Assembly (NCBI GenBank): GCA_023457325.1
Contig: JAEWLX010000045.1
Span: 1 to 39,267, forward strand
Source: Bacillota bacterium
GTDB lineage: Bacteria; Bacillota_I; Bacilli_A; RFN20; CAG-826
DNA length: 39,267 bases
Direction of reading: 5' to 3'
Position 1 is the stretch's first letter; each line of letters begins with the position of its first letter. The notes under the pieces are model-generated. The model was given only the letters and a program-made list of their open reading frames with translations, was not told where the DNA came from and made no database searches. Shown in pieces: positions 3,482-39,267 of this stretch. Both the position numbers and the translations under genes were made by a program.

Positions 3482-3544
3482 GTGTGCGCCCCCAAGTATG
3501 CATGAATATAATAGCAAAAAAGATTTGATATTTACATAATTTGT

Positions 3545-6210: not shown

Positions 6211-6221
6211 TAATTTTCTCC

Positions 6222-8803: not shown

Positions 8804-8805
8804 TT

Positions 8806-10050: not shown

Positions 10051-10063
10051 TATTTCACCTTCT

Positions 10064-13465: not shown

Positions 13466-13468
13466 TAC

Positions 13469-17165: not shown

Positions 17166-17169
17166 GATT

Positions 17170-17655
17170 CTACTCCTCTCCTGGAACTTTTATAAGTTCA
17201 TAATCGCTAATAGCGAAGTGTGTGGTAACGGGTTTAACAAGATCTTCGCGGACAGCAATGACAAGGTCGAGTCCGCTTACTAAGACTTTTTTGAGGATGT
17301 TATGGTAGCCTCCTCCCATAATTTCAAGAACGCCAACTTCATCAAGATAAATAGGCATTACTTTCTTTTCGATGAATTCATCAACAACGCTTTCAAGCAA
17401 GGACAATAAGTTTAAATTCAAGTAGAAGGGTCCGAACTTACTGCTATGAGTGAAATCTTGATGGTAATGGTTTTGATAAATCATCCAAGGAATGGTGTTG
17501 CTATTGCTGAGGCGAAGCATAATGTAACCGTAAACTTCCTTGCCCTTCATCTTTTTAATGGCGGCAAAGCCGTCACCAATTAGATTCTTTCGATACTCAT
17601 TAATGAGAGTCGTGGTTTTACCGGCATTAATTTTTCCAGCAATGATTTTAACCAT
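17170..17655 (-). CDS. P-loop NTPase, THEP1/NTPase_1-like (161 aa)
   Basis: Walker A GKINAGKTT and Walker B IYLDEVGVLE. The start is set at MVKIIAGK (ATG 17655) because the longer track ORF would overlap the upstream membrane-protein gene. Confidence 0.6.
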   Translation of the reverse strand: MVKIIAGKINAGKTTTLINEYRKNLIGDGFAAIKKMKGKEVYGYIMLRLSNSNTIPWMIYQNHYHQDFTHSSKFGPFYLNLNLLSLLESVVDEFIEKKVMPIYLDEVGVLEIMGGGYHNILKKVLVSGLDLVIAVREDLVKPVTTHFAISDYELIKVPGEE

Positions 17656-17707
17656 TAAGAGCCTTTCTAATTGTGATGCTTGCCACCATGAAACAAAGTA
17701 TGTTCCC

Positions 17708-18397
17708 TTATAACAAATTCGGAATGACAACCGCAAGAACAGCAAAAACTAATGTTAGTGGTGATAAAACATACATGAGCCAGTTCGGCGATTTAATCGT
17801 TACTTTCTTCATCGTAAGTAAAGCTTGAGCTAAACGATAAACGCCATAAATGATGGCGAAGACCAATAATTCGTAGGCACCATTGACAAAGATAAAGCGC
17901 GTACTTGCCTCAAAATTAGAAAGCTGAGCAGCAAGATTACCGCTAATGGCTGATTGAATGCCTTGGTTAGCTAAGAACAAAACGCGCCACGATACGATAG
18001 CTAAAACAATCGCCCCGAGATGAATAAATGTTTGTTTGGCTGGTGAAGTTTTCTTTTCAAAGATATAGCTCACAGCAAAGACGGTGATTGATTCCAAAAT
18101 AATCGAAATCATTGGCGTATAAACTCTCATTAATCCTTCCCAATGAATTGGGAAAGCAAAGTTAATGGCTTTAATTGCGGCGGCGAGTAAACCGACATAA
18201 AGGATTGTGCTTCTGCGCCCTGTGTTTTGATAAGCCCAATACATTAATGCTGAGCCAATCGGAAACATGACAAGACCTGACCACATATTTGGTAACCAAT
18301 GAAGAAGATAGCCCACCGTAGCTTCAAGCAAGCCCCAAACGGCACCGAAAAAGATAACGGCAAATAGTGTGTTCAACTTAGATTTTTTGTTATTCAT
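17708..18397 (-). CDS. Integral membrane protein (~6-7 TM), unknown family, possibly transporter/S-component-like
   Basis: 229-aa hydrophobic ORF (MNNKKSKLNTLFAVIFFGAVWGLLEATVGYLLHWLP...). No family recognised. It is embedded between the two Mo-hydroxylase gene sets. Confidence 0.6.
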   Translation of the reverse strand: MNNKKSKLNTLFAVIFFGAVWGLLEATVGYLLHWLPNMWSGLVMFPIGSALMYWAYQNTGRRSTILYVGLLAAAIKAINFAFPIHWEGLMRVYTPMISIILESITVFAVSYIFEKKTSPAKQTFIHLGAIVLAIVSWRVLFLANQGIQSAISGNLAAQLSNFEASTRFIFVNGAYELLVFAIIYGVYRLAQALLTMKKVTIKSPNWLMYVLSPLTLVFAVLAVVIPNLL

Positions 18398-18409
18398 AAC
18401 AATACTCCT

Positions 18410-20719
18410 TTATTTTCCTTTGTTGAGCCCCTGAAATATTTTTTCAGGAGTAACCGGCAATTTATTGATTCGCACGCCGGTTGCGTTTGCGACTGCGTTA
18501 GCAATTGCAGCTGGAGGCGTGTCAATACCGATTTCACCAACCGACTTCGCGCCATACGGTCCGCTTTCCTCAAAACTTTCCGCGAACTCAGTCGTTAGTT
18601 TCTTAACGTCGAGCATCGATGGAATTTTATAGTAGAGGAAGCTGTTGCTATTTAGCTTTCCGCGGTTGCTGTATTTTACGTCTTCAAAACAAGCCATGCC
18701 TAAACCTTGTACAATTCCACCTTCAACTTGTCCTTTGGCGAGCATTGGATTAATCGTTACACCGCAGTCGACGACACTGACATAATGAAGAATGTCATAT
18801 TCGCCAGTCTCGGTGTCGAGTTCAATTTCGACATATCCCGCCATAAATGGCGGAGGTGATTTATGACCAACATAGCTTTCAGTCGCTGTCAGTTGATGTT
18901 GATTTTCATTGTAATAAAGGCGGTTAGCCAAATCAGAAAGGGTTAAGACCTTGTCTTTGCTAGTAAATTTTTCACCGTCAAAAACAACTTCTTCTTCTTT
19001 TGAATTTAAATAGTTAGCCGCTTCTTTAATTAGCATGCTTTTCATCTTCAAGGCCGCCTTTAATGCGGCATTGCCAGAAACATAGGTTGTGCTTGAAGCA
19101 TAGGCACCGACATCAAATGGAGTTAAATCGGTATCAGATGAATAAATAATTACTTTATCAACAGAGGTCATTAAAGCCTCGGCAACGATTTGCGTGATGA
19201 CGGTATCACTTCCCTGGCCGATATCAGTTGCGCCAACAGTAAGGTTATAGAATCCGTCGTCGTTGAGTTTAATCGTAGCAGCAGCCATATCGATATAAGG
19301 AATGCCACTTCCTTGCATCGCAATCGCCATGCCAACAGCGCGAACTTTATTTGGACCAACTTTAACAAATGGATATTTATCCTTCCAGCCAATTAATTCC
19401 GCACCACGATCGAGGCAATAACGAAGTTTACACGTATCCATATCCATGGCTGTGCCTTCTGTGCCCTCGCCCATGATAGCAAAGATTGGACTTGTCTCGC
19501 CTTCTTCCATCATATTTTTACGACGGAGTTCAAGCGGATCAATATTTAATCTTTTGGCGAGAACGTCAATGGCTGATTCGAGAGCAAAGTTGCCTTGAAT
19601 CGCTCCATATCCGCGATAGGCACCGGCTGAAACGTGGTTAGTGTAAACGACACGCCCACCAAAGCGAACGGCATCAACTTTATTATAAAGTGGCAAGACC
19701 TTTGAACCAGTAATCATGAAGACGGTTAAAGCGTGTTCTCCATAAGCTCCGGTATCAGACAAACTATAACAATCAATGGCCTTTAAAGTACCGTCTTTCA
19801 TCGCGCCTAAACGCATTCTAATTCGCATAGGATGACGGGTGTAGGAAGATTCAAAAACTTCCTGACGTGAGTAAATCATCTTTGATGGCTTTTTCGTTTT
19901 TAAAGTAACAAGCGAGACAAAGAATTCACCATGAATAGCCTGTTTGCCACCAAAACCACCGCCCACTCTTGGCTTGATAACGCGAATCTTGCTAATCGGC
20001 ATATCAAGTGTTTGTGAAATAATCCTTCTAACATGATATGGCGTTTGCGTGGCCGTATAAATGACGAGCCGATTATGATAATCGAGTCTTGCATTAGCGG
20101 TGTGAGGCTCTAGCATCGCATGAGCTTGGGCCTGCGTGTAATAAGTTTCGTCAATTACGACATCACATTTAGATAAGGCATCTTCGACATCGCCGACGTG
20201 CATGTCATAGGCGGCAGCGACGTTTTTCTTGGGTTCAAAACCGATTGGAAACATCTCGTGAATGCCGTCCTCAGGATGAATGATATTTTTGTTTTCATAG
20301 GCAGTCTCGTAATCCAAGACAGGTTCAAGAACTTCGTATTCGACTTCAATAAGTTTTAAGGCTTGATCGGCGATAGATTCATTAATGGCTGCCACGCAAG
20401 CGACTTCGTCACCAACGTAACGAACATACTCATCTAAAATAAACTTATCGTGGGGAGATGGTTCGGGATAACCCTGCCCAGCTCTCGTAAAAGATTTGCG
20501 AGGTACATCGTGATGGGTTAAAACGACTTCCACACCAGTTAAGTCTTTAGCCTTTGATACATCAATTTTCTTAATCTTAGCAAAAGCATGTGGACTTCTT
20601 AAAACCTTGACAATTAAAGAATTGGCCTCAGCAAGATCATCCGTAAAGGCCGGACGACCCATCATGATTCCTTTACCGTCAACTGAAGGCGTTTTTTGAT
20701 TTACAACTTTTGTTTTCAT
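18410..20719 (-). CDS. Molybdenum hydroxylase molybdopterin-binding subunit, set 2 (XdhD/XdhA-like)
   Basis: 769 aa. It carries GGGFGGKQA (Gln in place of the XDH Glu802 equivalent), AYRGYGAIQ (Arg retained) and AKSVGEIGI (catalytic Glu). Confidence 0.9.
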   Translation of the reverse strand: MKTKVVNQKTPSVDGKGIMMGRPAFTDDLAEANSLIVKVLRSPHAFAKIKKIDVSKAKDLTGVEVVLTHHDVPRKSFTRAGQGYPEPSPHDKFILDEYVRYVGDEVACVAAINESIADQALKLIEVEYEVLEPVLDYETAYENKNIIHPEDGIHEMFPIGFEPKKNVAAAYDMHVGDVEDALSKCDVVIDETYYTQAQAHAMLEPHTANARLDYHNRLVIYTATQTPYHVRRIISQTLDMPISKIRVIKPRVGGGFGGKQAIHGEFFVSLVTLKTKKPSKMIYSRQEVFESSYTRHPMRIRMRLGAMKDGTLKAIDCYSLSDTGAYGEHALTVFMITGSKVLPLYNKVDAVRFGGRVVYTNHVSAGAYRGYGAIQGNFALESAIDVLAKRLNIDPLELRRKNMMEEGETSPIFAIMGEGTEGTAMDMDTCKLRYCLDRGAELIGWKDKYPFVKVGPNKVRAVGMAIAMQGSGIPYIDMAAATIKLNDDGFYNLTVGATDIGQGSDTVITQIVAEALMTSVDKVIIYSSDTDLTPFDVGAYASSTTYVSGNAALKAALKMKSMLIKEAANYLNSKEEEVVFDGEKFTSKDKVLTLSDLANRLYYNENQHQLTATESYVGHKSPPPFMAGYVEIELDTETGEYDILHYVSVVDCGVTINPMLAKGQVEGGIVQGLGMACFEDVKYSNRGKLNSNSFLYYKIPSMLDVKKLTTEFAESFEESGPYGAKSVGEIGIDTPPAAIANAVANATGVRINKLPVTPEKIFQGLNKGK

Positions 20720-21168
20720 TTATGAGCCTCCAAATATTTTTTAATCGCTTTAAACTGAGATTGATAACCCGAGCAGCGGCATAAATTGCCAGCGACAAAG
20801 TGCTTAATATCCTCATCAGTCGGATTGTTAAGTTCTTTTCTTAGGGCGAGGATGGTAAGAGCAAGACCAGTATTACAAAAACCGCATTGATCAGCGCCTT
20901 CGTCCGCAAAGAAATCACTAATCTCATCAACTTCATCTTGTAATGCTTCCACGGTTGTGACATTTCTTCCTTCCACTCTCGCGGACAAAAATGAACAGGA
21001 CAATATTGGGCGTCCGTCTAATAAGACGGTGCACGCTCCGCAGGCTGCTTCGTCACAAGCTTTTTTGACTGATAAAACGGAATGGCTTCTTAAAGTATCA
21101 GCTAGATATTCTCCGGGAGTGATGTCGTAGCTAACATAACGACCATTTAGATTAAAGTTAACTTTCAT
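20716..21168 (-). CDS. Molybdenum hydroxylase [2Fe-2S] subunit, set 2
   Basis: CDEAACGACTV, QCGFCNTG and NLCRCSGY. 150 aa. 4-nt overlap with the Mo subunit gene. Confidence 0.9.
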   Translation of the reverse strand: MKVNFNLNGRYVSYDITPGEYLADTLRSHSVLSVKKACDEAACGACTVLLDGRPILSCSFLSARVEGRNVTTVEALQDEVDEISDFFADEGADQCGFCNTGLALTILALRKELNNPTDEDIKHFVAGNLCRCSGYQSQFKAIKKYLEAHK

Positions 21169-21962
21169 TATTTGCTAACCTCCTCAAGACCACGTTTGAC
21201 ATAGGCTTTTGCCAAAGCTTTGCGATACTCAGCGCTGGCAGCACCTGTCGAAGCGTAAAGAAGTTCTTCAGAGGCAAGTTCAGCGGCCTTATTTATAAGT
21301 TCATTAGAAAGATTCTTGGCATTATTAACTACTTCCATTGATTTAGATGCTAATGAGGCGACAGAAGGACGACTGCCTATCGCTATGCGATACTTGCCAT
21401 CAATATTAGCGATGGCCACATTAACGACAGCAAAATCAAGAGCGGTTGTTTTGACTTTTTTAAAGAAGGAAGGACCTTGGCTTTTTTTAATGACAATATG
21501 TGTCAAAATATCGCTCAAACGTCCTTTAAAGCTTAAAAAATCGTTAAGCGTCATTTCCTTGTGCGGATAAAAGACGAGTTTTGTCTCAAGTGCCAATAAG
21601 GGAGTAATAATATCAGAAAAGGGAAATCTACCAGCGACCGAACCACCGATTGTCGCACTATTGCGAAAGGCAACACCCATGATTTGGCTTACCGCTTCAA
21701 TCAAGATGCCTCCTTGAATATTTTTAAGTAACGGACTCAGTTCAAAATCTCTAAGGCTGACCATAGCTCCAACTTCGACTGTGTCACCAAGATCTTTGAT
21801 GGTATCAAGTCCAAGAGCGCTTAAATCAACTAAGGTGTTTGCAGAAGAAGTTGACTTCTTAAGCCAAAGACCACCGCCCAACAAAACGTTTTTTGCATCT
21901 TGAAGCAAGATTTGGTGAGCTTCTTCAAGGGTCGCGGGTCGTAAGTAGCGATTTGCTTCCAT
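21168..21962 (-). CDS. Molybdenum hydroxylase FAD-binding subunit, set 2 (YgfM-like short form)
   Basis: 264 aa. FRNSATIGGSVAGRFPFSDIITPLLALETKLVF resembles the CoxM/YgfM FAD domain. The usual AGGT(D/N)L motif is degenerate (LGGGLWL). Confidence 0.8.
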   Translation of the reverse strand: MEANRYLRPATLEEAHQILLQDAKNVLLGGGLWLKKSTSSANTLVDLSALGLDTIKDLGDTVEVGAMVSLRDFELSPLLKNIQGGILIEAVSQIMGVAFRNSATIGGSVAGRFPFSDIITPLLALETKLVFYPHKEMTLNDFLSFKGRLSDILTHIVIKKSQGPSFFKKVKTTALDFAVVNVAIANIDGKYRIAIGSRPSVASLASKSMEVVNNAKNLSNELINKAAELASEELLYASTGAASAEYRKALAKAYVKRGLEEVSK

Positions 21963-21981
21963 GTTTGTTTCCTTTCTTTAT

Positions 21982-22530
21982 TTATAATTTTTGATAGTCA
22001 CGAGGGGTATCGATGTCCATCAAAATTTGTGAATCCTCTGTCTTGATTATTTCATAATCGTGTCGATTGCGAAATAGTTTCAGGTTCGAAGTTACTGGCT
22101 CATTAAGCAATTCATCTTTAATAGAATGCTTAATAAAGAGTGGGTGACCAGTTCGATTTTGATAGACTGGGACACGCATTTCTTTGCTCCCCAAAAGCAA
22201 TTTTTGATACGTGTCGCCGCTTACAAAGGGACAATCTCCCGGAAGAATAAAAAAATCGCCCTTCGTTTTACGAACACCGGCTTGAACGGAACTAAACATT
22301 CCTTTCGAATAGTCGGAATTATAAACGATGGTGACCTTTGAATATGATTTTAGGGCCTCTTTAACTTCTTCGTGATAGTGCCCAGTCACAACGATAACTT
22401 CATCAACAAAGGGGAGCATTCCTTCAACGGCATGGGCAATTAAAAACCTTCCCTTGTGAGTTAATAGCATTTTATTCGTCTCGGCTCGGCTGGAGTAGCC
22501 GGCCGCTAGGATAATCCCTTGGGTCATCAA
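21982..22530 (-). CDS. mocA: Molybdenum cofactor cytidylyltransferase (MocA/YgfJ-like nucleotidyltransferase)
   Basis: N-terminal GIILAAGYSSR nucleotidyltransferase motif and PGDCPF. 182 aa. It is the first gene of the Mo-enzyme operon, with AAGGAG SD. Confidence 0.8.
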   Translation of the reverse strand: MMTQGIILAAGYSSRAETNKMLLTHKGRFLIAHAVEGMLPFVDEVIVVTGHYHEEVKEALKSYSKVTIVYNSDYSKGMFSSVQAGVRKTKGDFFILPGDCPFVSGDTYQKLLLGSKEMRVPVYQNRTGHPLFIKHSIKDELLNEPVTSNLKLFRNRHDYEIIKTEDSQILMDIDTPRDYQKL

Positions 22531-22621
22531 GTTTACTCCTTGTTTTAATACCAGTTATGATGATTCAACAATGTTGTATTCATCAAACTGTGAAATCTAT
22601 CGAGGTGTTTACAACAACTAA

Positions 22622-22650
22622 ATTATAAATGGTGAGCGCTTTCATTGCAA
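22622..22650 (-). promoter_or_regulatory. SigA-type promoter of the purine-catabolism operon: TTGCAA-17 nt-TATAAT
   Basis: The reverse complement of 22622-22650 reads TTGCAA TGAAAGCGCTCACCATT TATAAT. This leaves an ~84-nt leader before mocA. Confidence 0.6.
22631..22644 (-). promoter_or_regulatory. cre (CcpA catabolite-responsive element) inside the promoter spacer: TGAAAGCGCTCACC
   Basis: Matches the cre consensus TGWAANCGNTNWCA at every specified position except the last. It starts immediately after the -35 hexamer. Confidence 0.55.
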
Positions 22651-22724
22651 ACGCGTATTTGTGTCACACCCGCCTACCACTCGCTCGATTCCAAATGCGA
22701 AACCAAGAAGAGTATCTCATTCCG

Positions 22725-22753
22725 TTGTTGTCGTTTTTAAGAAGGCGTATAAT
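22725..22753 (+). promoter_or_regulatory. SigA-type promoter of the carbamate kinase gene: TTGTTG-17 nt-TATAAT
   Basis: 22725-22730 = TTGTTG and 22748-22753 = TATAAT with a 17-nt spacer, 41 nt upstream of the ATG. Confidence 0.5.
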
Positions 22754-22794
22754 GTTAATGTTGTGCACATTATTCGTGCAAAAAGGAAATAAAT

Positions 22795-23715
22795 ATGAGT
22801 AGATATGTCGTCTCACTAGGGGGCAACGCCCTCGGAAACAATGCCGAAGAACAAAAAAGACTATTAATCAATGTAGCCACGCCAATTGTGGCTTTGATTA
22901 AAGCTGGACATGAAGTAATTATTGTCCACGGAAATGGGCCACAAGTCGGTATGATTAATCTGGCTTTCGCTGAATCGAAATCGACTCCGGATATGCCTTT
23001 TCCAGAATGTGGAGCAATGAGCCAAGGCTACATTGGTTTTCACTTGCAAAACGCGATATTTAACGAACTTGCAAAGCAAAACGTCGATAAGCACGTGGCA
23101 ACAATTGTCACTCAAGTCGTTGTCGACGCAAATGATCCTCTCTTTTTAAACCCTACGAAACCAGTCGGTGCTTTTTATAGTCAAGAAGAAGCAGAAATCA
23201 TCGCTTTGGAAAAAGGCTATACGATGAAAGAAGATAGTGGGCGTGGCTATCGCCGCGTTGTCGCTTCTCCCTTACCAATTGATGTCGTAGAAAAGGACAT
23301 GATACTCAGTTTACTTAAAGACAAACATGTTGTTATTTGTGCCGGCGGCGGAGGTATTCCCGTCATTAGAAAAGGACAGCATTTGGAAGGAATCGCCGCT
23401 GTCATCGATAAAGACTATGCCAGTGCGAAAGTTGCCGCTCTTGTCGATGCCGATTATTTAGTCATTTTAACTGCTGTTGATAATGCCTATATTAACTATA
23501 AAAAACCAGGCGAAAAAAGACTTGAAAAAGTCACAATGAGTGAAATTGAAAAATACGCTGAAGAGGGTTTCTTTGCCAAAGGAAGTATGTATCCAAAAGT
23601 TCAAGCGTGTTTAATGTTATTAAAAGCTAAAAAAGGTAAAACAGCTATTATCACGTCTCTTGAAAAAGCACAGGAAGCCTTTGTTGAAAAGGTCGGTACA
23701 ATCATTAAATCTTAG
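22795..23715 (+). CDS. yqeA: Carbamate kinase (YqeA/ArcC type)
   Basis: SLGGNALG, HGNGPQVGMINLAF, LNPTKPVG, EDSGRGYRRVVASP, GGGGIPV, AVIDKDYASA and FAKGSMYPKV are classic carbamate kinase motifs, very close to E. coli YqeA as recalled. Confidence 0.92.
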   Translation: MSRYVVSLGGNALGNNAEEQKRLLINVATPIVALIKAGHEVIIVHGNGPQVGMINLAFAESKSTPDMPFPECGAMSQGYIGFHLQNAIFNELAKQNVDKHVATIVTQVVVDANDPLFLNPTKPVGAFYSQEEAEIIALEKGYTMKEDSGRGYRRVVASPLPIDVVEKDMILSLLKDKHVVICAGGGGIPVIRKGQHLEGIAAVIDKDYASAKVAALVDADYLVILTAVDNAYINYKKPGEKRLEKVTMSEIEKYAEEGFFAKGSMYPKVQACLMLLKAKKGKTAIITSLEKAQEAFVEKVGTIIKS

Positions 23716-30433: not shown

Positions 30434-30608
30434 GGTTATTTCCTCCTAATGACAATTGATACATTAAGTATACATTAAGATGAATTGGTAATCATTTAAG
30501 GTGCTTTGATGAACTATAATAAGCATTTTTCCCATTTTAAAACTCATGTACATGAAGCCCTTTCGAGTATTACAATAAAATCAACATAACTATTTGCAGG
30601 GGCTAGCC

Positions 30609-32417
30609 ATGAATAATTTGAACCACCTTCGCCACAAACATCCACGTCTCTTTTTTCTTTTGCTACTAATAACCTTCAATTTGCTATTAATGATAATTTC
30701 AACATTAATTGTCTATTTTGGAATTGGCGGTTACGCGAATATTTGGGAAGCTTTCTCGCAAACAGCCATTACTTGGTTCCTCGATCCAGGATTTTATAAT
30801 CAAGACGGCAATAATGCCTTGAAAATTATTTCGATGATAACCGTCTTAACGGCTATGATCAGCGTGAATGGCGGGATTATCGCTTTTCTATCAGCTTTGC
30901 TGATGGACTTTTTAGAAACGATTCGAAGTGGTGCGGGCAATCTGCGTGTGAATAACCATGTTTTAATATTAAACTGGAGTAGTGAAGTCGGCGAAATTCT
31001 CGTCAGTTATTATTATGATGTCCGACCAACGACTGTCGTAATTCTAAGTGAAAAACCCCGTTCTGAAGTTGAAAGAGCGATTAAAGAAAGTTTTTTTAGT
31101 AACGGTATCCGCCGCCCTGGAAGAAAACTTCGTTACTTTGTTCTTCAAGGCGACCCTCTTTCCAGCGCCGATTTAGACTGGGCGCGTGCCTACAAGGCCA
31201 GCAGTATTATCGTTCTTAACGCTAATAAGTTTAATAATCCAAGCGATAACGATATTGATGTTTTAAAAATATTAATGCTTTTAACACCCACCAAAGAGCA
31301 AACCGTTGTGGCCGAGGTATGCGATTCGAAAACTGATGAATTGATCAAATCTGGCTTTACCTTAAACGGCGAAAGTGAAAGCAATATTGTCTTTATCAAT
31401 CAAACAGCGATTATGGGCTTTATTATTGCCCAAACGATGGTCTCTCCTTATCTAAGCGACATCTACGCCGAATTACTCGGGTTTGGTGGTGCAGATTTTT
31501 ATACCAAAAGGTACACCGAAAGTATTTCGTCATATCTAGATATTTATTCCCATTCTTTACCAGTTTTTACTAAAAAGATTAATGGTAATAGCCATCTTCT
31601 TATCATGGCTGATAATAAAAAAGATCTCGATAAATTAAGAGAAAAAGAATATGTTTTGCCATCTTTAATAAAATTAAATTTTGTCAATCGGCAGACACCG
31701 ATTACGCATCGCGATGTATTAATTGTGGGTGACAATGAAAAAAGCGCCTTTATCATCGATAGCCTTAAAAAATACACTCTCGACAGTGGCAATCAAATCC
31801 ATGTTGAGCAAAAGGATGACATTAGCGAAAAGCTTATAAAAGAAATCGCATCAGGACAATATAGTAAAGTTATTTTGCTTTCCTCAACGAACCATAATCT
31901 TGATGGTGATCCCGACTCCAAAGCAATAACAAGCCTTTTAAAAATTTCAAAAGCTGCAAAGGACAGTCAAACATCCTTAATTATTGAACTCGTCAATCCC
32001 CGTAATGCCCAGATTACAACTCGTTATGGAATTAAGTATTCGATTTTGACAAATCGCTACATCAGCCGCATCATTTCGCAAACGAGTAAAAATCCAGTCT
32101 TCTATCCCTTTATTGAAGATCTCTTCACCTATGATGAAGAATCATCAAGTGAAGAATCGTACGAGATCTACATTCATGAGGCTTCCGAACTCATTTCTTT
32201 TGAAGAGAAGAAACAATATGTTTTTGAAACGCCTTCACACCTTGTTCGTTCTTTCTATGAGCAAAACGAAGATGACCCTTACATTGTCATCGGAATTGTA
32301 AACGAGGAAAAGAGCAACCCGAATCTTTATAACATTAAACTCTTCAGCGATAACTTAGACTCTAAAGTCTACCTAATAGTCGAACCAGAAACAAAACTAA
32401 TCGTTGTCGCTAAATAA
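30609..32417 (+). CDS. Two-TM pore + tandem RCK-like domain ion channel (CASTOR/POLLUX-like)
   Basis: TM1 (LFFLLLLITFNLLLMIISTLIVYF), pore-loop-like WEAFSQTAITWFLDPGF and TM2, followed by two Rossmann-like starts (NHVLILNWSSEVG, DVLIVGDNEKSAF). The start is taken at ATG 30609 (AGGGG upstream) rather than the TTG at 30594. Confidence 0.6.
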   Translation: MNNLNHLRHKHPRLFFLLLLITFNLLLMIISTLIVYFGIGGYANIWEAFSQTAITWFLDPGFYNQDGNNALKIISMITVLTAMISVNGGIIAFLSALLMDFLETIRSGAGNLRVNNHVLILNWSSEVGEILVSYYYDVRPTTVVILSEKPRSEVERAIKESFFSNGIRRPGRKLRYFVLQGDPLSSADLDWARAYKASSIIVLNANKFNNPSDNDIDVLKILMLLTPTKEQTVVAEVCDSKTDELIKSGFTLNGESESNIVFINQTAIMGFIIAQTMVSPYLSDIYAELLGFGGADFYTKRYTESISSYLDIYSHSLPVFTKKINGNSHLLIMADNKKDLDKLREKEYVLPSLIKLNFVNRQTPITHRDVLIVGDNEKSAFIIDSLKKYTLDSGNQIHVEQKDDISEKLIKEIASGQYSKVILLSSTNHNLDGDPDSKAITSLLKISKAAKDSQTSLIIELVNPRNAQITTRYGIKYSILTNRYISRIISQTSKNPVFYPFIEDLFTYDEESSSEESYEIYIHEASELISFEEKKQYVFETPSHLVRSFYEQNEDDPYIVIGIVNEEKSNPNLYNIKLFSDNLDSKVYLIVEPETKLIVVAK

Positions 32418-32421
32418 ATAA

Positions 32422-32901
32422 CTAATCTTTTTTATCTTCTAATGAGGTATCTTTTTTCGCTTCTTCTTGATGAGCGCTTTTATTAGTGTCTAATGATTTG
32501 CGGAAAACGACATATCTTTGATAAAGGAACTCAAGAACAAAATTCATGACCATGTTCATGGCTAAAACCAGATATTCGTTCCACCCGTTCAAATCACATA
32601 AATACCATTCAAGCAAAGTGGATAAAGGGGCAAAGACGGCATAAAAGGCAAAGACAAGCAACATGGCAATTGGAACATTTGCTGCTGATTTAAAAGTGAA
32701 GCGCCGATTAAAGGTGAAGTTCCAGATTACTGACAAAATCAAAGCAATTAAGTATGAAAGCCAGTAACCAACATCTCCGCCATTTTTGAAGATTACTTCG
32801 TTCAGTAATGTAAACGAAAGAATTTGAACAATTCCAGCCGAAACAGAGAAAAGGAAAAACTTCAAAGCACGAATTAGATCTTTTTTGCGTTCTGTGGTCA
32901 T
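32422..32901 (-). CDS. GtrA family membrane protein
   Basis: 159 aa with 4 TM. FLFSVSAGIVQILSFTLL and NFTFNRRFTFK are GtrA-like signatures. Confidence 0.8.
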   Translation of the reverse strand: MTTERKKDLIRALKFFLFSVSAGIVQILSFTLLNEVIFKNGGDVGYWLSYLIALILSVIWNFTFNRRFTFKSAANVPIAMLLVFAFYAVFAPLSTLLEWYLCDLNGWNEYLVLAMNMVMNFVLEFLYQRYVVFRKSLDTNKSAHQEEAKKDTSLEDKKD

Positions 32902-32919
32902 ATTTTACCTCACATTTCC

Positions 32920-34512
32920 TTAAGCATTAAGCATCTTAAATAGTTTCTTACTAGCGTAATACAATTTCTTAAAGACTATATAATTTTTATCGTAAACTAT
33001 CTTATTTTCTGAATGCGGATGATAAGTATTAATAACAGGTATGTAGTCCTTTATTTTCTTAAAATCGCTGATGATTCCCAAACCCACTCCAATGACAGCG
33101 GCCGCTCCAACCGCCCCGACATTCTGTGGGTTTGCGACGACTTCGATTGTTCGTCCGGTAATATCGGCTAGCATCTGATTCGTAACTTCCGATAAAGCTC
33201 CACCGCCGACAAAACGAATCGGATTTGAAGTCTTAATTTTCTTATCCTGACATTCAAGCATCCACCGCAAATGAAAGCAAATTCCCTCTAAAACTGCCCT
33301 AATTAGTTCTGTTTTGCCAGTTTCGAGACGAATATTGAAAAACATTCCGGCAGCATTGGGATCTTCAAATGGACAACGATTACCGTGAAGCCAAGGTGTG
33401 AAAATTACACCACCCGAACCAGGCGCGGCTTTTTGCACAGTCTTTGTTAAATAATCGTAAAGACTTGTGTAGATAGCTTCTTTATCGCAAGTTACATCTT
33501 TCTTTTCTAAGTAGATGCCAATTTCATCAAGCGCTAAATGGTCCTTGACCCATTCAAGACACTTACCGGCTGTTTCCATTTCCGCGAAGTAATTAAAGCG
33601 GTTTGCTTCAACAGCGACGACCGAGGCAATCATTGATTCGATATCAACGACTTGCTTATCAAGAATGGTTGATACCCAACCCGATGTTCCTGAATAGATA
33701 TGCGTCTCACCAACATTAACGGAGCCCGCACCAATACCAATTAGGGTCGCGTCTCCACCGCCTCCAAATACATTAATACCTGGCGTAAGTCCTAAATCAA
33801 AAGCAGCCTCTTTAGTTAAGACTCCGACTATGTCGGTGGCTTTGATAATCTCGGGGAGGTGTTTCATATTAACGCCAAATGTTTTGCATAGTGACTTACT
33901 CCATCCTTCTTTGCCAGGTCGTGTGTCGTAAAGAAAAGTTGAGTAGGCCGAATCGGGCGTCATAATAAAACGCCCTGTACAACGAGATATGAGATATTCC
34001 TTAACATCGAGCCATTTATAAACGTTTTTAAATACTTCTGGTTCGTTCTTTTCAACCCATTTGTATTTCCAAAGCGGGTCTTTGACACTCAGTGAGGCCG
34101 CTTTAGTAATCGATAGGCTTTTAAGCAATTTAAAAACATTTGCCCCGTCAATTTCAATTCCTCCGCCCATACCAGCTTTGAGTTCTTGCTTGGATCGTTG
34201 ATCCATGTAACTCATCGCTGGGCGTAAGGCCTTGCCTTTTTCATCGACAAGAACAAGCCCTTGCATCTGCGAGCAAAAAGAAAGACCAGCAATATCGCTT
34301 GGTTTAACTTCACACTTTTTAAAAAGCTCACATGTCGTGTCAGCCATGGCTTTCCACCACTCATCGACATCTTGCTCTGCGCCTCCATTGTCGAGTAAAT
34401 AGAGACCGTAGCCCTTATGGGCACTGGTGATAAGGGTAATTGTCTGGTCGATTTTGAATAGACAAGTTTTTACGCCTGTTGTCCCGATGTCATAAGCTAT
34501 GACGTGTTTCAT
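32920..34512 (-). CDS. FGGY-family carbohydrate kinase (530 aa)
   Basis: N-terminal AYDIGTTGVKTCLF, GGGDATLIGIGAG and FVGGGALSEV motifs of the FGGY (glycerol/xylulose kinase) family. Confidence 0.85.
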   Translation of the reverse strand: MKHVIAYDIGTTGVKTCLFKIDQTITLITSAHKGYGLYLLDNGGAEQDVDEWWKAMADTTCELFKKCEVKPSDIAGLSFCSQMQGLVLVDEKGKALRPAMSYMDQRSKQELKAGMGGGIEIDGANVFKLLKSLSITKAASLSVKDPLWKYKWVEKNEPEVFKNVYKWLDVKEYLISRCTGRFIMTPDSAYSTFLYDTRPGKEGWSKSLCKTFGVNMKHLPEIIKATDIVGVLTKEAAFDLGLTPGINVFGGGGDATLIGIGAGSVNVGETHIYSGTSGWVSTILDKQVVDIESMIASVVAVEANRFNYFAEMETAGKCLEWVKDHLALDEIGIYLEKKDVTCDKEAIYTSLYDYLTKTVQKAAPGSGGVIFTPWLHGNRCPFEDPNAAGMFFNIRLETGKTELIRAVLEGICFHLRWMLECQDKKIKTSNPIRFVGGGALSEVTNQMLADITGRTIEVVANPQNVGAVGAAAVIGVGLGIISDFKKIKDYIPVINTYHPHSENKIVYDKNYIVFKKLYYASKKLFKMLNA

Positions 34513-34526
34513 TTTTTACCTCGCTA

Positions 34527-35180
34527 TCATGTTTTATGCTTAATTTGCGATTGTTCGAAAGTGAAGGCTGATTCTAAGAATTTTAAAAACTGCTGAACGA
34601 CACGTTCGTCATCTTCAAGAACATCGTTTCCGCAGTAGACTTTAAAACGTTCCATGTAATAGTCGCAGCTATATGAAAACTGCATCATCATTAAGAGGCT
34701 ATCGAAAAAGAACGCGAATAATTTAGTATCAATGTCAGCACGGATATCTCCATCTCTAATCGCATTGGCAATAAAGTCGGCATATACTTTAGCGGTCACG
34801 CCTTCAATTCGCTTAGCGAGTTCCGGTGCGAAGCGCTTATTGCTTCCAACTGTGATTGAGTTATACATTTTGATGTAATTAGTATGTTTGCGAGAATAAA
34901 ACTGAACAGCGCGAATAATTTTTTCAGCGCGCTTCATCAACTTGTCCTGGCCACTTAAAAAATCATTGACCACTTCTTCAAGAACGGCAAGGCTTTTGTC
35001 AAGACAAGCCAGGAAGAAAACTTCTTTGTCTTTATAATATTTATAAAGAACACCAACACTTATGCCGGCTTTCTTGGCGATTACATTAATATTCGCGCGG
35101 TCTAAACCCAAGTCGGCAAATTCGTTAATTCCTACCTCTAAAATGTCATCGATTTTTTCTTTAGTTAGTTTTTTAAGCAT
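34527..35180 (-). CDS. TetR/AcrR family transcriptional regulator
   Basis: N-terminal HTH (ANINVIAKKAGISVGVLYKYYKDKEVFF). 217 aa. 8-nt overlap with the upstream aldolase gene. Confidence 0.85.
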   Translation of the reverse strand: MLKKLTKEKIDDILEVGINEFADLGLDRANINVIAKKAGISVGVLYKYYKDKEVFFLACLDKSLAVLEEVVNDFLSGQDKLMKRAEKIIRAVQFYSRKHTNYIKMYNSITVGSNKRFAPELAKRIEGVTAKVYADFIANAIRDGDIRADIDTKLFAFFFDSLLMMMQFSYSCDYYMERFKVYCGNDVLEDDERVVQQFLKFLESAFTFEQSQIKHKT

Positions 35181-36342
35181 TGCTACTTCCCTCTTTTTTT
35201 AATTTAGAATACTTTCGGGAATACACAAGTCTTTGTATCCAACTATCAAATTTGCCTAATGGCTTACCGCCCTTAGTCATTGCAACTAGCATTTCACTTA
35301 GGCATTCTTTTCGTAAAATCATACCGACAGCTTCAACATCATCTTCATCAAGACCGATACAAAGCGCTCCTTGCCCGTGAATCATAACCGCGTTGCGTCC
35401 CCTTATTTTTTTAACAAATCGGTGAGGCTTTGCGTTACGAATGTTAACGCCAATTATTTGGGCGACATCATCGATATAAGGATATAACGTTTTTCCGCTT
35501 CTACTTACGGCCACTACTTCGTGATCTTGATTATGAACAATGCAGTTTGCGCCATTAGATAAATACAATTGCTGGTGTATTCTGGCGGCATCGCTTAGAG
35601 TTTCGTTTTTATCAATTAAGGAATATTCTTTTTCCTCGCCACTTATAGTTAGAGTGAAGGTAGTTCCTTTTTTGATGCTTTTGCCAAGATTAAGCGTCCC
35701 GCCACCATTAGTTATAGCAAACCTTTCGGTGTACTTTTTCTCAAGTTCTTCAAGAGAAGATGTATTTGTTAAGCGAAGTATTTCTTTTTCAGCTACTTTT
35801 TCTAAGGCAAACGAACGATCAAACGCTTCTTCCATCGTTGTGCCAAGGCATATCGCACCATGGGATTTAAGTAAGAAGGCTGAACTATTAGGATTCTTTT
35901 CAATTGCTAACGCCGCGTTCTTAGCTAGTGTTTTGGTCGAGGAGATGCCATAAGCGGCGTTAGGAACGATTTTTCCAAGTAAGACGCTTAGATTATCATC
36001 GATTGCTATTTCCCTTCCTAAAACGCTTAATACGGAGGCCATTAACTGATGGGTATGAATGACAAAATTAACGTCTTTTCTTAGTTTATAAACTGCGGCA
36101 TGAATGCCTTTTTCACTTGAAGGCTTAATGTCGCCTTCATATGAACAGTCTTCAATATTTAATAAGACGATGTCTTCCGGTTTCAATGAATCATAGGCTC
36201 GCCCTTTGGGCGTAACAACAAATTGCGTATCGGAAACACGAGCCGATATATTTCCCCATGTCCGCGCGACAAGACCTGATGAAACAAGTTTTAGTCCAGC
36301 TTCAATAACTAGTTTTTTTGCTTCTTGGACTTGATAGGCCAT
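35173..36342 (-). CDS. Class II aldolase/adducin-family protein with a second, degenerate aldolase-like domain (389 aa)
   Basis: The N-domain has TWGNISARV, SSEKGIHAAVY, VIHTHQ (metal His) and KSHGAICLG. The C-domain repeats the fold pattern (IHQQLY, IVHNQDHE, MIHGQGALCIG) but lacks the HxH motif. The start is moved to MAYQVQ (ATG 36342, GGAGA SD). Confidence 0.75.
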   Translation of the reverse strand: MAYQVQEAKKLVIEAGLKLVSSGLVARTWGNISARVSDTQFVVTPKGRAYDSLKPEDIVLLNIEDCSYEGDIKPSSEKGIHAAVYKLRKDVNFVIHTHQLMASVLSVLGREIAIDDNLSVLLGKIVPNAAYGISSTKTLAKNAALAIEKNPNSSAFLLKSHGAICLGTTMEEAFDRSFALEKVAEKEILRLTNTSSLEELEKKYTERFAITNGGGTLNLGKSIKKGTTFTLTISGEEKEYSLIDKNETLSDAARIHQQLYLSNGANCIVHNQDHEVVAVSRSGKTLYPYIDDVAQIIGVNIRNAKPHRFVKKIRGRNAVMIHGQGALCIGLDEDDVEAVGMILRKECLSEMLVAMTKGGKPLGKFDSWIQRLVYSRKYSKLKKEGSSNA

Positions 36343-36347
36343 CTTGA

Positions 36348-37832
36348 TTATTCTCCGAGTTTTCCGCACTTGGCGAAGACACGTTCAAAGCGCGCTAATA
36401 CATCATCGATCATCTCTTCGGTATAAGCAGCGCTCGTATATAGTCTCGTTCCTGCTAAGGTTACGATTCCTTCAGCCATGTAGGCAGCGCCCATATGTTC
36501 CATCTCTCTTTGACGAATACTAGTTTCTTTTAAAATGTGTGGTATCGTCCAAGGTTTTTTCCAATTGATAACAAAATGCATTGTTCCCGCATTATCAAGA
36601 TGTACAATTGAACCCTGATTAAAAACAACAAACGGCAAATTATATTTTTTAACTAATTCTTGTAAACCTTTAGTTAGTCGATCACCCATTCTTCCTGCCG
36701 CTTCGCAGGCATTGCGTTTTTGTATTTCACAAAGGGCATAATAGCCCGCCACACACGATATTGGTGTCGCCGCTAAAGTGCCACCACACAATGCTTTGGG
36801 AAGTTTTTTTCCAGACGAATCAAGCCCCGCGCCAAGATAGGCCATTACCTCAGCGTGACCACCAACTCCACCAGCGCCAGGATAGCCACCGGCCACAACC
36901 TTGCCAAAAATAGTTAAATCTGGGTCAACACCAAAAAAGCCTTGCGCACCGCTTTGCCCAATTCTAAATCCAGTAACGACTTCGTCGAAAATTAGTAAGG
37001 CGCCATATTTTTTCGCTAGACGCTCTGTTCCTTTGATAAATTCTTTAGATAGGGGCCGAGTTCCACTTTCTGGTCCAACTGGTTCAATAAAGATGGCGGC
37101 TGTGCCTCCTCTTAAGCGATTAAAACGTAATTTGCGTTCTAAATCCTTTAAGTCATTGGGAAAGAATTCTTGAGTGTGTTTGAAGACATAATTAGGAATT
37201 CCTTTTGACATGATGCCTTTTGTCCCAGGCACACGAAGTCCATAGGCGAGTTGATCAGACCAACCGTGATAGGCTCCACCCATCTTTAAAATATTTTTGT
37301 GTTTAGTCTTGAGCCTCGCGATGCGGACAGCGACCATACAAGCTTCGGTGCCCGAGCCAAGCATTCTAAAACGCTCTACCGAGGGAAACATCTCAGATAT
37401 TTTCTTAGCTAATTTATATTCATATTCATGAAAAAGACCAGTTGAAGGCCCACACGTATTTAAAAGCTCAATTACTTTATCTCTAACGACAGGATCATTA
37501 CTACCGATGATGGTTGGACCACCAGCTTGCAGTAAGTCGTAATACCAGTTGCCATCGATATCATATAGTTTTGTGCCTTCGGCTTTGGTAATAACAATGG
37601 GAAAAGGATAATTGAAGGCTAGGTTATGTTGAACACCCCCGGGAATAATTTCCTTGGCTTTGCCAATCATCTCTTTTGATTTTAAACACTTCTTATTAAA
37701 GTAGTTATCGACATAATCATTAAGGAAATTTTTCTTAATCGAATAGACGGGTTTTTTGATTAATTCATCTAATTGTTTGGTGACAAAAGAAGCATCTAAA
37801 TACTCATCGATGCCAAAACCGTTATAGGCCAT
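36348..37832 (-). CDS. Class-III aminotransferase family protein (glutamate-1-semialdehyde aminomutase-like, 494 aa)
   Basis: SGTEACMVAVRIAR, LIFDEVVTGFR and TIFGKVVAGGYP (PLP lysine) motifs. It has an ~60-aa N-terminal extension. The start is set at MAYNGFG (ATG 37832, AAGGAGA SD). Confidence 0.8.
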   Translation of the reverse strand: MAYNGFGIDEYLDASFVTKQLDELIKKPVYSIKKNFLNDYVDNYFNKKCLKSKEMIGKAKEIIPGGVQHNLAFNYPFPIVITKAEGTKLYDIDGNWYYDLLQAGGPTIIGSNDPVVRDKVIELLNTCGPSTGLFHEYEYKLAKKISEMFPSVERFRMLGSGTEACMVAVRIARLKTKHKNILKMGGAYHGWSDQLAYGLRVPGTKGIMSKGIPNYVFKHTQEFFPNDLKDLERKLRFNRLRGGTAAIFIEPVGPESGTRPLSKEFIKGTERLAKKYGALLIFDEVVTGFRIGQSGAQGFFGVDPDLTIFGKVVAGGYPGAGGVGGHAEVMAYLGAGLDSSGKKLPKALCGGTLAATPISCVAGYYALCEIQKRNACEAAGRMGDRLTKGLQELVKKYNLPFVVFNQGSIVHLDNAGTMHFVINWKKPWTIPHILKETSIRQREMEHMGAAYMAEGIVTLAGTRLYTSAAYTEEMIDDVLARFERVFAKCGKLGE

Positions 37833-37881
37833 GTTTATCTCCTTGTTATCTCGTGAGTGGTTGCTCACACTTTACAATTTT

Positions 37882-37910
37882 AAATTACCACCCGACAAAA
37901 ATAGTGTCAA
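37882..37910 (-). promoter_or_regulatory. SigA-type promoter TTGACA-17 nt-TAATTT for the aminotransferase-aldolase-tetR-kinase-gtrA unit
   Basis: The reverse complement of 37905-37910 = TTGACA and of 37882-37887 = TAATTT. It lies directly after a terminator and ~50 nt before the start codon. Confidence 0.5.
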
Positions 37911-37912
37911 GA

Positions 37913-37946
37913 ATATAAAAACAACTCGAAATCGGTCCGAGCTGTT
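37913..37946 (-). terminator. Rho-independent terminator after the transaldolase/FSA gene
   Basis: The minus-strand RNA has AACAGCUCG-9 nt loop-CGAGUUGUU followed by UUUAUAUU. Confidence 0.6.
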
Positions 37947-37963
37947 ATGTAGTGATGATAAGT

Positions 37964-38620
37964 TTACTTATTAAGTTTTGCTTTTAATTCTTCGTAAGCA
38001 GCGACAAAAGCAGCAATGCCTTTATCGGTTAATGGATGCTGAATAGCCTGCTTAAAAACAGCATAAGGAATGGTGGCAATATGAGCACCCGCTAATGCGG
38101 AATCTTGTAAATGCATCGGGTGACGAATACTTGCACTAATTATTTCCGTTTTGAAATCATAAATATCAAAGACATCGCGAATTTGTCTAATTAGTTCTAT
38201 ACCGTCTTGTCCAACATCATCAAGCCTTCCAACAAACGGGCTAACATATGTCGCTCCGGCTGTTGCAGCCATAAGAGCTTGCGATACATTAAAGATTAAT
38301 GTGACGTTTGTCTTAATCCCGAGTTTTGATAAGGATTTGACGGCTTTTAAACCTTCGGCTGTCATTGGTATTTTAACAATCATGTTGGGATGAATTTTAG
38401 CAATGGCTTTGCCTTCTTTAATCATTCCTTCGGCATCCAAAGCATTAACCTCGCCACTAATTGGGCCATCGACAATTTCTGTTATCTCTTTGATGACGTC
38501 TTCAAAACGGCGTCCTTCTTTAGCGATTAATGATGGGTTGGTGGTTACACCACTTACAATGCCCCAAGAGGCAATTTCGCGGATGTGTTCAACATTCGCG
38601 GTGTCGATGAAAAGTTTCAT
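37964..38620 (-). CDS. tal: Type 3B transaldolase / fructose-6-phosphate aldolase
   Basis: 218 aa, nearly collinear with B. subtilis Tal/YwjH as recalled ([20 protein letters not shown] Schiff-base Lys, [18 protein letters not shown]). Confidence 0.9.
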
Positions 38621-38655
38621 GCAATTCTCCTTTTAAAGCCTTTCTTCATTATAGA

Positions 38656-39096
38656 TTAAAGAATCGTGACCGTCCCATCTTCTTTAACTTCGAGGATATC
38701 TCCGCTTTTAACAGTTTCTAAAAAATCTTTGCCAAGCATATCAATCGCGATTATTTTGCTATCTTCCCATATACGTGCAAGAACAATGCCGCTTGCCGCC
38801 AAACTATCGATGTGTTCGCTAAAAAGGAAGCATGCTGGGTTTATACCCATTGAACAAACGGTTTGTATGACTAGTCCGCCCGTCGTTGAGCCAATCGTTA
38901 TTGGTAAACACAAAGCTTTACCAGTAATATTTTTCTCATAAATATCAGGATTATTTTGATCAGAAACGAGAACTTCCTTGGCGTTTTTTAAAGCACTTTT
39001 TTGAAAAGTTGCGAGGGTATTAACACCTTGTCGAGATACGACAGCTTCGCCCTTAAAATAACCAGGAGCGATTACTCTTCCTTTAAATTCTTTCAT
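38656..39096 (-). CDS. Aconitase X swivel-domain protein (DUF126, AcnX small subunit)
   Basis: 146 aa. N-terminal GRVIAPGYFKGEAVV, a Gly-rich GSTTGG loop and small size fit DUF126. It is preceded by a DUF521-like gene end. Confidence 0.75.
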   Translation of the reverse strand: MKEFKGRVIAPGYFKGEAVVSRQGVNTLATFQKSALKNAKEVLVSDQNNPDIYEKNITGKALCLPITIGSTTGGLVIQTVCSMGINPACFLFSEHIDSLAASGIVLARIWEDSKIIAIDMLGKDFLETVKSGDILEVKEDGTVTIL

Positions 39097-39098
39097 AA

Positions 39099-39266
39099 CT
39101 AGTTAACCGCCTTTCCAACTAAATAATTTAGAATCTCCAAATCTTTGTAATAACGGGCAATTGAATAGGTTCTTAGTTTATTTGAGCTTGTCATGATTCT
39201 TCTTACTTTAGTAAGAGGATTATTTGTATACATCAAAGGACAAATAGAAGACACCTTAACGCCGGT
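39099..39266 (-). CDS. C-terminal fragment (55 codons) of a probable aconitase X catalytic-domain protein (DUF521); the rest lies beyond the window end
   Basis: Hand translation gives ...TGVKVSSICPLMYTNNPLTKVRRIMTSSNKLRTYSIARYYKDLEILNYLVGKAVN*. The stop TAG lies 2 nt before the DUF126 start. The assignment rests mainly on the usual DUF521-DUF126 pairing. Confidence 0.45.
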   Translation of the reverse strand, partial: TGVKVSSICPLMYTNNPLTKVRRIMTSSNKLRTYSIARYYKDLEILNYLVGKAVN

Positions 39267-39267
39267 G

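Follow-up and report, generated by a model that had tools for sequence, protein, structure and literature searches.

The window, i.e., the whole stretch of DNA analysed here, is one complete contig of 39,267 bp (JAEWLX010000045.1) from a Bacillota bacterium (GTDB lineage Bacteria; Bacillota_I; Bacilli_A; RFN20; CAG-826), whose assembly (GCA_023457325.1) is small and incomplete (0.89 Mb, 68% complete). Five minus-strand genes in its last quarter form a cassette. Read in the direction of transcription, it begins with a class-III aminotransferase-fold enzyme of 494 aa that uses pyridoxal 5'-phosphate (PLP) (36348–37832; PF00202, E = 9.6e-52; hereafter AT), followed by a tandem class-II aldolase (35173–36342; 389 aa counted from the ATG, with PF00596 matching in two stretches), a TetR-family repressor inside the operon (34527–35180; PF00440), an FGGY-family kinase of 530 aa (32920–34512; PF00370 and PF02782), and a GtrA/DPMS-type membrane protein with four transmembrane (TM) segments (32422–32901; PF04138). 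The original prediction, a first reading of the sequence by itself, had listed these genes and those upstream of them, an 8-nt overlap of the TetR start with the aldolase stop (ATGCTTAA), and an inverted repeat at 37853–37868. Open reading frame (ORF) calls and Pfam/NCBIfam profiles recovered every gene on the minus strand with the same coordinates, lengths and families, and the overlap and the repeat were found again in place. Two transcription units had also been proposed, with a terminator and a promoter between them, and both elements could be confirmed. The intrinsic terminator that closes the upstream transaldolase unit (37920–37946, minus strand) folds into an 11-bp stem with a U-run (−13.1 kcal/mol, z = −3.8; 0/200 shuffles as stable). 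The cassette promoter (37882–37910, minus strand) was read directly as TTGACA (37910–37905), a 17-nt spacer and TAATTT (37887–37882) with a TGn extended −10; a generic scan did not list it because TAATTT matches TATAAT at only 3/6 positions. The same promoter layout recurs 5' of AT in relatives. The genes between 32422 and 37832 are read as one putative TetR-repressed operon, which probably encodes a self-contained catabolic or detoxifying route at the cytoplasmic membrane face.

The five genes almost certainly constitute one functional module. Gene presence was counted by tblastn in 47 reference loci with full flanks. AT, aldolase and FGGY kinase occurred together in 47/47, and the aldolase adjoined AT in every one of them; TetR was present in 36 loci, GtrA was no farther than 7 kb from AT in 30, and 4 had a class-3 aldehyde dehydrogenase (ALDH). 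The proposal that these genes represent a syntenic, uncharacterised pathway was therefore borne out, as the neighbourhood comparison used to check for chance juxtaposition came out against chance in 47/47 loci. Across 41 related genomes, the AT and FGGY orthologues show the same presence/absence pattern, with 7/41 carriers. At least three gene orders are known among the loci: the window type, AT-aldolase-TetR-FGGY-(ALDH)-GtrA; a divergent type, in which TetR and FGGY are transcribed away from AT and aldolase; and a third, TetR-FGGY-[aldolase::GtrA]-AT. Further forms have no TetR and a short aldolase; a natural short aldolase measures 258 aa. Apart from generic ABC, MFS and MatE transporters, the 273 non-redundant flanking proteins from ~75 loci contain no further recurrent family, so the cassette appears to be self-contained. 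Within this protein set, no dedicated solute-binding protein or importer recurs, and neither does a linked aldose-ketose isomerase or sugar permease (Fucose_iso_C appeared twice only). Full-text literature searches found no publication describing the cassette and no matching pathway, which agrees with the original view that the combination fits no known pathway.

The cassette is widespread but patchy. A pattern scan with one genome per species confirmed at least 438 cassette stretches, and the hosts belong to Bacillota, Spirochaetota and Mycoplasmatota. Carriers available in culture include Lutispora saccharofermentans m25, Lachnoclostridium sp. An138 and Agathobacter rectalis. AT identity across phyla is 74–84% (Treponema, Clostridia, Erysipelotrichaceae, Izemoplasmatales and others), and that of TetR is 50–69%. 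Between the window and a Treponema locus, identity is 83% for AT, 70% for FGGY, 65% for TetR and 48% for the aldolase, with no GtrA ORF called in that Treponema locus; in other distant loci GtrA is 52–63% identical to the window copy. Close to the window, the cassette is carried by 5/8 other genomes of the genus, 1/16 from the other genera of the family and 0/16 from the other families of the order. The AT tree places Treponema and Izemoplasmatales inside a well-supported Bacillota clade and shows Bacilli as polyphyletic. The patchy distribution and the AT tree together indicate a probable accessory element spread by horizontal gene transfer (HGT), in keeping with a niche role in detoxification or catabolism.

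Two variants were seen among close relatives. In a 90%-identical relative (L005 10040–11808; L006 3793–5561), the FGGY gene is cut to 419 aa and directly adjoins a DegV fragment of 173 aa; compared with the window, a deletion seems to have taken the kinase 3' end, GtrA, an RCK gene, a flavin mononucleotide (FMN) reductase and the DegV 5' end, and the cassette appears to be decaying there. One metagenome-assembled genome of the window's genus (G003; loci L008 and L009) has two AT copies on separate contigs, both 92% identical to that of the window, of which one adjoins AcnX and the other lies within a full cassette.

The inverted repeat upstream of AT is the probable TetR operator. When the regions 5' of AT were aligned across loci, a palindrome, GTGAR-N6-YTCAC, appeared between the −10 element and the ribosome-binding site. 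It was present in 34/36 loci with a called TetR compared to 6/21 without (Fisher p = 2.5e-7), and the six motif-bearing loci without a called TetR look like cases of TetR genes missed by crude ORF calling. The divergent loci have two copies of the palindrome. There are 68 matches in 1.4 Mb of loci, and the sole match in the whole 39-kb window is the GTGAG-N6-CTCAC repeat at 37853–37868 (minus strand), read directly in the interval from the −10 element to the Shine-Dalgarno sequence. Because the repeat co-varies with the TetR gene, we predict that it is the operator, as the original prediction had suggested it could be. The TetR profile has distant matches only in the PDB (KstR2, MtrR, FadR, UidR), from which no ligand was called. 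TetR regulators usually sense lipophilic ligands.

AT has the fold of glutamate-1-semialdehyde aminomutase (GSAM, HemL) and most likely another function. HemL is its best-scoring fold relative (PDB 4e77 and 3bs8, ~210 bits), yet AT stays under every NCBIfam equivalog cut-off (257.5 vs 527.3 for hemL TIGR00713; 271 vs 398 for NF000818). We aligned the window protein and four distant family members with E. coli HemL and GabT. The Schiff-base Lys (HemL K265) and the PLP-binding Asp (D237) common to AT and HemL are kept, and both columns are invariant. However, the HemL motif GGVNSPVRAF reads GGVQHNLAFNYPF in the window AT and the four distant members, and its Arg, which we take to bind the carboxylate of the HemL substrate, is lost. 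AT differs further by a 49-residue N-terminal extension and an 8-residue insertion, and the family has an invariant C-terminal Arg in AG(T/S)RLYTS. None of 41 related genomes, of which 26 are ≥90% complete, yielded 5-aminolevulinate dehydratase (ALAD/HemB, PF00490) in a search whose control was positive in 11/14 reference genomes. Given the sub-cut-off score, the missing carboxylate Arg and the absence of detected ALAD in these 41 genomes, we rejected AT as a HemL; the earlier label of a GSAM-like enzyme is right for the fold but not for the function. We infer that AT is a true transaminase.

The aldolase combines a predicted catalytic half with a dead one. Aligned with E. coli FucA, the N-half is FucA-like and keeps N29, S71, S72, E73, H92, H94 and H155, a set that includes the Zn ligands His92, His94 and His155 and the catalytic Glu73. 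Its phosphate-site motifs GNIS, TPKG and PSSE correspond to the FucA phosphate set of Asn29, Thr43/Gly44 and Ser71/Ser72, with Thr43 replaced by Lys (Ser in relatives). In the C-half, by contrast, H94 and H155 are replaced by Gln and E73 by Ala, leaving a degenerate metal site. A conserved Y/I-DD-x-AQ segment lies in the Tyr113 region of the C-half, and this segment and the C-terminal tail are also found in the short aldolases of TetR-less loci. Since both elements are kept in the C-half and in the short aldolases, the dead half may stand in as a partner subunit and contribute what the second subunit brings to the interface active site of FucA-type enzymes. The protein scores below the FucA-type equivalogs (116 vs 264 bits for NF005302 and 88 vs 400 bits for TIGR01086). 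The kinase has both FGGY domains (PF00370, E = 3.3e-43; PF02782, E = 8.3e-29); it is xylulokinase-like and likewise below all equivalogs (295.2 vs 380.25 for XylB TIGR01312; 186 vs 912 for NF011601). The kinase plus class-II aldolase logic first noted for this locus holds, with the FucA catalytic set kept in the N-half. The dehydrogenase inserted in some loci is of class 3, the fatty/aromatic aldehyde type (379 bits to human FALDH, 4qgk; 467 bits to S. aureus AldH, 6k0z).

Fusions couple the soluble enzymes to GtrA. The window GtrA scores 46.1 bits with PF04138 (cut-off 26.1), and this profile also matches in fusion proteins. In four TetR-less reference loci, kinase and GtrA are one ORF of 670–697 aa with the Pfam order FGGY_N + FGGY_C + GtrA_DPMS_TM. 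Searches with the C-terminal part of the fusion detected at least 27 protein clusters of FGGY::GtrA fusions in at least three lineages and ~30 clusters of Aldolase_II::GtrA fusions; the latter were seen inside the cassette in one Treponema sp. genome and one other contig. Within the window's own genus, one genome encodes FGGY and GtrA in a single 696-aa open frame, which, together with the fusions in other lineages, implies that fusion arose repeatedly. The partner is the kinase or the aldolase and never AT. Fusion of either enzyme to GtrA would tie the pathway to the membrane. In Pyrococcus, the catalytic domain of PfDPMS is attached to a GtrA-like TM domain, by which the lipid substrate is handled, and characterised GtrA-family members act on lipid-linked sugars, not free solutes (PMC12992685). 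No glycosyltransferase partner of the GtrB/CsbB type recurs beside the cassette among the 273 flanking proteins.

The cassette GtrA subtype was also met in other settings. In clusters P0273, P0274, P0277 and P0307 it is fused to other domains, namely a faint acyltransferase match, an APH/fructosamine-kinase-type kinase, a queuosine-synthesis-like domain and a 2-oxoacid dehydrogenase acyltransferase; P0273, in the one context examined, lies outside the cassette. The subtype may therefore be a general membrane-anchoring or lipid-presenting module. Of three copies in relatives lacking the cassette, two carry an in-frame stop (G019:C2:549799-550188 and G038:C1:95510-95941) and may be remnants of lost cassettes.

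These parts can be arranged in a four-step scheme that appears to be the most economical one using every part. An inducer would bind TetR, which would then leave the GTGAG-N6-CTCAC operator. AT would transaminate the C2 amine of a 2-amino-1,3,4-triol, i.e., a head group of the 2-amino-2-deoxy-alditol type, to a ketone, giving a 2-ketose analogue. The FGGY kinase, anchored at the GtrA-type membrane domain or supplied by it, would phosphorylate the C1 hydroxyl, although the order of transamination and phosphorylation may be reversed. The Zn-dependent FucA-like N-half, with the dead C-half replacing the partner subunit, would cleave C3–C4 into dihydroxyacetone phosphate (DHAP) and an aldehyde, which the class-3 ALDH may oxidise in some lineages. 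This general sequence, from amine to ketose phosphate to DHAP and aldehyde, falls only just short of being probable in our judgement. We favour a lipidic or amphiphilic substrate because enzymes of the cassette are fused to a membrane domain in some lineages, the regulator is a TetR, the ALDH is of class 3 and no solute transporter belongs to the cassette, and our confidence in that part, too, lies barely under the midpoint. Taken whole, with the route placed at the membrane and an amphiphilic substrate, the reading is tentative and somewhat further from probable than either part. The earlier guess of an amino sugar, amino-polyol or deoxy-sugar acid is not contradicted by these results but misses the membrane coupling. 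Phytosphingosine is the obvious natural 2-amino-1,3,4-triol and our favoured candidate, to which we attach low confidence; a long-chain base of this type would give DHAP and a C15 fatty aldehyde with no need for O2. That the substrate is phytosphingosine-like in particular is accordingly a conjecture, and it is just as doubtful that anaerobic bacteria of gut, rumen and sediment use the cassette for O2-independent destruction of trihydroxy sphingoid bases from plants, fungi and gut epithelium.

Several observations weigh against this membrane-associated route from amine to DHAP. Every chemical step is read from family membership. The kinase is nearest to xylulokinase and gluconokinase, which phosphorylate a distal primary hydroxyl, and less like the C1-kinases FucK and RhaB. 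No Tyr aligns in the N-half with FucA Tyr113, which is contributed by the partner subunit, and the residue is not visibly conserved. A clade of ~14 loci has no linked GtrA; in 5/5 genomes of that clade, GtrA of the cassette subtype (50–58% identity) is encoded elsewhere. The same subtype is present in three relatives without the cassette, so that the association of GtrA with the cassette seems strong but not exclusive. The very high conservation of AT (~80% across phyla) is left unexplained by the scheme. Lipid-related neighbours (DegV, DAGK_cat, ABC exporters) show no enrichment beyond kinship or chance. Adjacency to DegV/FakB was dropped as a lipid clue, as it occurs in 8 loci only, mostly kin of the window; a DAGK_cat lipid-kinase neighbour was dropped because it is limited to two related fusion loci and is possibly a housekeeping DgkB; and nearby MsbA-like ABC exporters are too common to count. 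Finally, the fusion of a kinase to a membrane protein could equally mean facilitated uptake and trapping of a small polar substrate.

That last point leads to a competing explanation that keeps the enzyme logic and changes the substrate, which would be small and soluble in water (an amino-polyol, an amino alcohol or an amino sugar), with GtrA as facilitator or importer, the kinase, sometimes fused to it, as trap by phosphorylation of the imported compound and the aldolase-GtrA fusion as a metabolon anchor. We regard it as rather unlikely, though a serious possibility: GtrA is the sole membrane protein of the module, with no other transporter conserved, the FGGY kinase resembles sugar kinases, and an FGGY kinase working with a membrane facilitator has a precedent in GlpK and GlpF, which associate in E. 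coli. However, sugar catabolism is not usually under TetR control, the dehydrogenase added in some loci belongs to the fatty/aromatic-aldehyde class, it is hard to see why the last, cytosolic aldolase step should be fused to a transporter, and the characterised GtrA members handle lipid-linked substrates (PMC12992685). The core FGGY and FucA-type pair, with its catalytic residues kept, could also serve a deoxy- or pentulose ketose that is phosphorylated and cleaved in the fucose/rhamnose/D-arabinose style, after which AT would act last by aminating lactaldehyde or glycolaldehyde; the resulting amino alcohol (aminopropanol, ethanolamine) would be exported by GtrA or used in the cell. GntE aminates an aldehyde, and the model of this GSAM-clade transaminase scores 205 bits against AT. 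We nevertheless consider such an arrangement improbable, since an isomerase or sugar transporter is never linked, an inserted class-3 ALDH would compete with AT for the aldehyde, GtrA is never fused to AT, and spending an amino group on aldehyde disposal brings no evident benefit. Class-II aldolase reactions are reversible and the module works at the membrane, so a biosynthetic direction deserves mention, in which the aldolase would condense DHAP with an aldehyde, AT would aminate the keto-phosphate, and GtrA would flip the product, an amino-polyol lipid or a lipid-linked head group, to the outer leaflet; a sphingoid-like envelope lipid would then be made independently of serine palmitoyltransferase. 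In envelope glycosylation, proteins of the GtrA family act as flippase-type partners (PMC12992685). A biosynthetic route would, however, leave the kinase without a role, an inserted ALDH would consume the aldehyde needed for the condensation, and the repressor-operator layout, patchy HGT spread and decay in relatives (the truncated FGGY of L005) are typical of accessory catabolism or detoxification, and we think both the biosynthetic direction and a sphingoid-like product highly improbable.

The original prediction itself had joined the cassette with the upstream Unit A into one catabolic locus for a single substrate, combining an AcnX dehydratase and a transaldolase/fructose-6-phosphate (F6P) aldolase with the five-gene unit. 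Unit A comprises the 3' end of the AcnX large-subunit gene, which runs off the contig (39099–39267, minus strand, last 55 codons at 39102–39266; located by tblastn), the small (swivel) subunit gene (38656–39096, minus strand; PF01989), which together belong to a separate module, and a TalC/FSA-type transaldolase of 218 aa outside the cassette (37964–38620, minus strand; TIGR00875). The 55 C-terminal aa of the large-subunit fragment are 93% identical to those of the relative L005 by tblastn. In the window's genus and nearest relatives AcnX lies directly 5' of the cassette, and the same five members of the genus carry both, which speaks for one locus. This adjacency is, however, restricted to the genus and its closest kin. 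Across genomes, the AcnX pair (431-aa AcnX and 146-aa swivel, with the swivel gene always 3' of the large-subunit gene in relatives) is kept with a divergently transcribed enoate-reductase-like gene of ~685 aa (Oxidored_FMN + Pyr_redox_2), and its downstream neighbour varies by genome between hydrogenase, Rnf and cassette. AcnX occurs in G010, G015 and G033, all without the cassette, and hundreds of genomes have the cassette but no AcnX. The units are divided by a terminator and by a separate promoter-operator, and the transaldolase is found at this position in the window contig only, being absent there in L005, L010 and L090. We therefore rejected AcnX as part of the cassette pathway on account of its variable neighbours and its presence in cassette-less genomes, and give a single locus almost no credence; Unit A, i.e., the AcnX pair and the transaldolase, appears independent of the cassette, and the original joining of the two units does not stand.

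The Unit A transaldolase scores 308.9 against a TIGR00875 cut-off of 245.95 and is an ordinary TalC/FSA-type protein, whose motifs SGEV and SPFVGR we take to favour transaldolase over F6P aldolase. Type-II Aconitase X, a heterodimeric mevalonate-5-phosphate dehydratase, has the same two-gene architecture of large and swivel subunits as the Unit A pair (PMC8184944). Unlike it, the pair has an enoate-reductase-like flavoprotein as partner, and a search of 25 related genomes, including 15 of high quality, detected neither HMG-CoA reductase (PF00368) nor UbiD-type decarboxylase (PF01977), for which reason AcnX as a mevalonate-pathway dehydratase was rejected for the window's lineage. No hydroxyproline genes were seen in the AcnX neighbourhoods examined. 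The AcnX and enoate-reductase-like pairing was observed in small-genome Bacilli (window 38656–39267; L005 368–6605; L087, L089 and L090 5800–9740), and AcnX with the ene-reductase-like flavoprotein is a candidate third AcnX function, as a dehydratase and ene-reductase pair.

Other genes of the window were recorded in passing. On the plus strand at 30594–32417, a predicted 607-aa membrane protein, whose sole Pfam match is a weak RCK (Slo-like), is convergent with GtrA, with stop codons 4 nt apart, and this position is kept within the genus. A 521-aa ORF without a Pfam match (1211–2776, minus strand) adjoins an ABC ATPase (2777–3517) and a DUF975 protein. A large minus-strand cluster (5200–23715) is typical of anaerobic purine/urate-type degradation and is notable given a genome of ~1.1–1.3 Mb. 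It contains two xanthine-dehydrogenase-family sets with molybdenum (Mo), flavin adenine dinucleotide (FAD) and 2Fe-2S subunits, two amidohydrolases, a PreA-like DHO_dh+Fer4 protein, two PALP enzymes, an M20 peptidase, an OTCase-like carbamoyltransferase, a carbamate-kinase-like AA_kinase and a MocA-like nucleotidyl (NTP) transferase.

The GtrA fusions, the co-variation of operator and TetR, the class-3 ALDH variant and the separation of the cassette from AcnX are new in this analysis. The cassette, for which no description was found in the literature, is widespread in anaerobic bacteria, among them genera that are common in the gut, e.g., Agathobacter. The classical kinase/aldolase logic would gain a transaminase step at its entry and a tether to the membrane, and a lipid or membrane-delivered substrate would become a possibility for two large families of "sugar enzymes". 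A systematic mis-annotation is also corrected, i.e., the labelling of AT proteins as glutamate-1-semialdehyde aminomutase where no haem pathway was found. The conserved, predicted operator-repressor pair would provide a ready-made biosensor for ligand finding. Should the substrate prove to be a sphingoid base or some other bioactive amino-alcohol, the cassette would bear on how gut microbes handle dietary, host signalling and antimicrobial lipids. The full route, if true, would replace the sphingosine-1-phosphate (S1P) lyase route of eukaryotes, and a lipid would for the first time be a substrate of FGGY kinases and FucA-type aldolases.

Known systems resemble the cassette in part. Type-III dolichyl-phosphate mannose synthase has a soluble catalytic domain N-terminal to a GtrA-type 4-TM domain, like the cassette fusions (PMC12992685); the soluble part of the latter is a sugar-type kinase or aldolase rather than a glycosyltransferase, and no polyprenyl-phosphate chemistry is evident. 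Fucose, rhamnose and D-arabinose catabolism (FucK/RhaB and FucA/RhaD) uses an FGGY kinase followed by a Zn-dependent class-II aldolase, as in the cassette, and the cassette aldolase, with the FucA catalytic and phosphate residues kept, should likewise release DHAP and an aldehyde. In contrast to those operons, the cassette has no isomerase or permease, an obligatory AT (47/47), a tandem aldolase with a dead second half, a TetR regulator and a GtrA tied or fused to the kinase or aldolase, and none of its enzymes reaches an equivalog cut-off. A further parallel to the proposed chemistry is eukaryotic sphingoid-base degradation by long-chain base (LCB) kinase, S1P lyase and ALDH3A2/Hfd1, which combines a kinase, a PLP enzyme, C–C cleavage, a class-3 ALDH and the membrane, as proposed here (PMC10398889). 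The link of the cassette to sphingoid bases is inferred, and the two routes use unrelated families: an FGGY rather than a DAGK-type kinase, and a transaminase and Zn aldolase rather than a lyase. In eukaryotes, phytosphingosine is processed via 2-OH C16:0 and alpha-oxidation to C15:0, for which yeast needs a dioxygenase (PMC10398889). The cassette would instead cleave C3–C4 to release DHAP, rather than C2–C3 to release phosphoethanolamine, and would proceed without O2-dependent alpha-oxidation.

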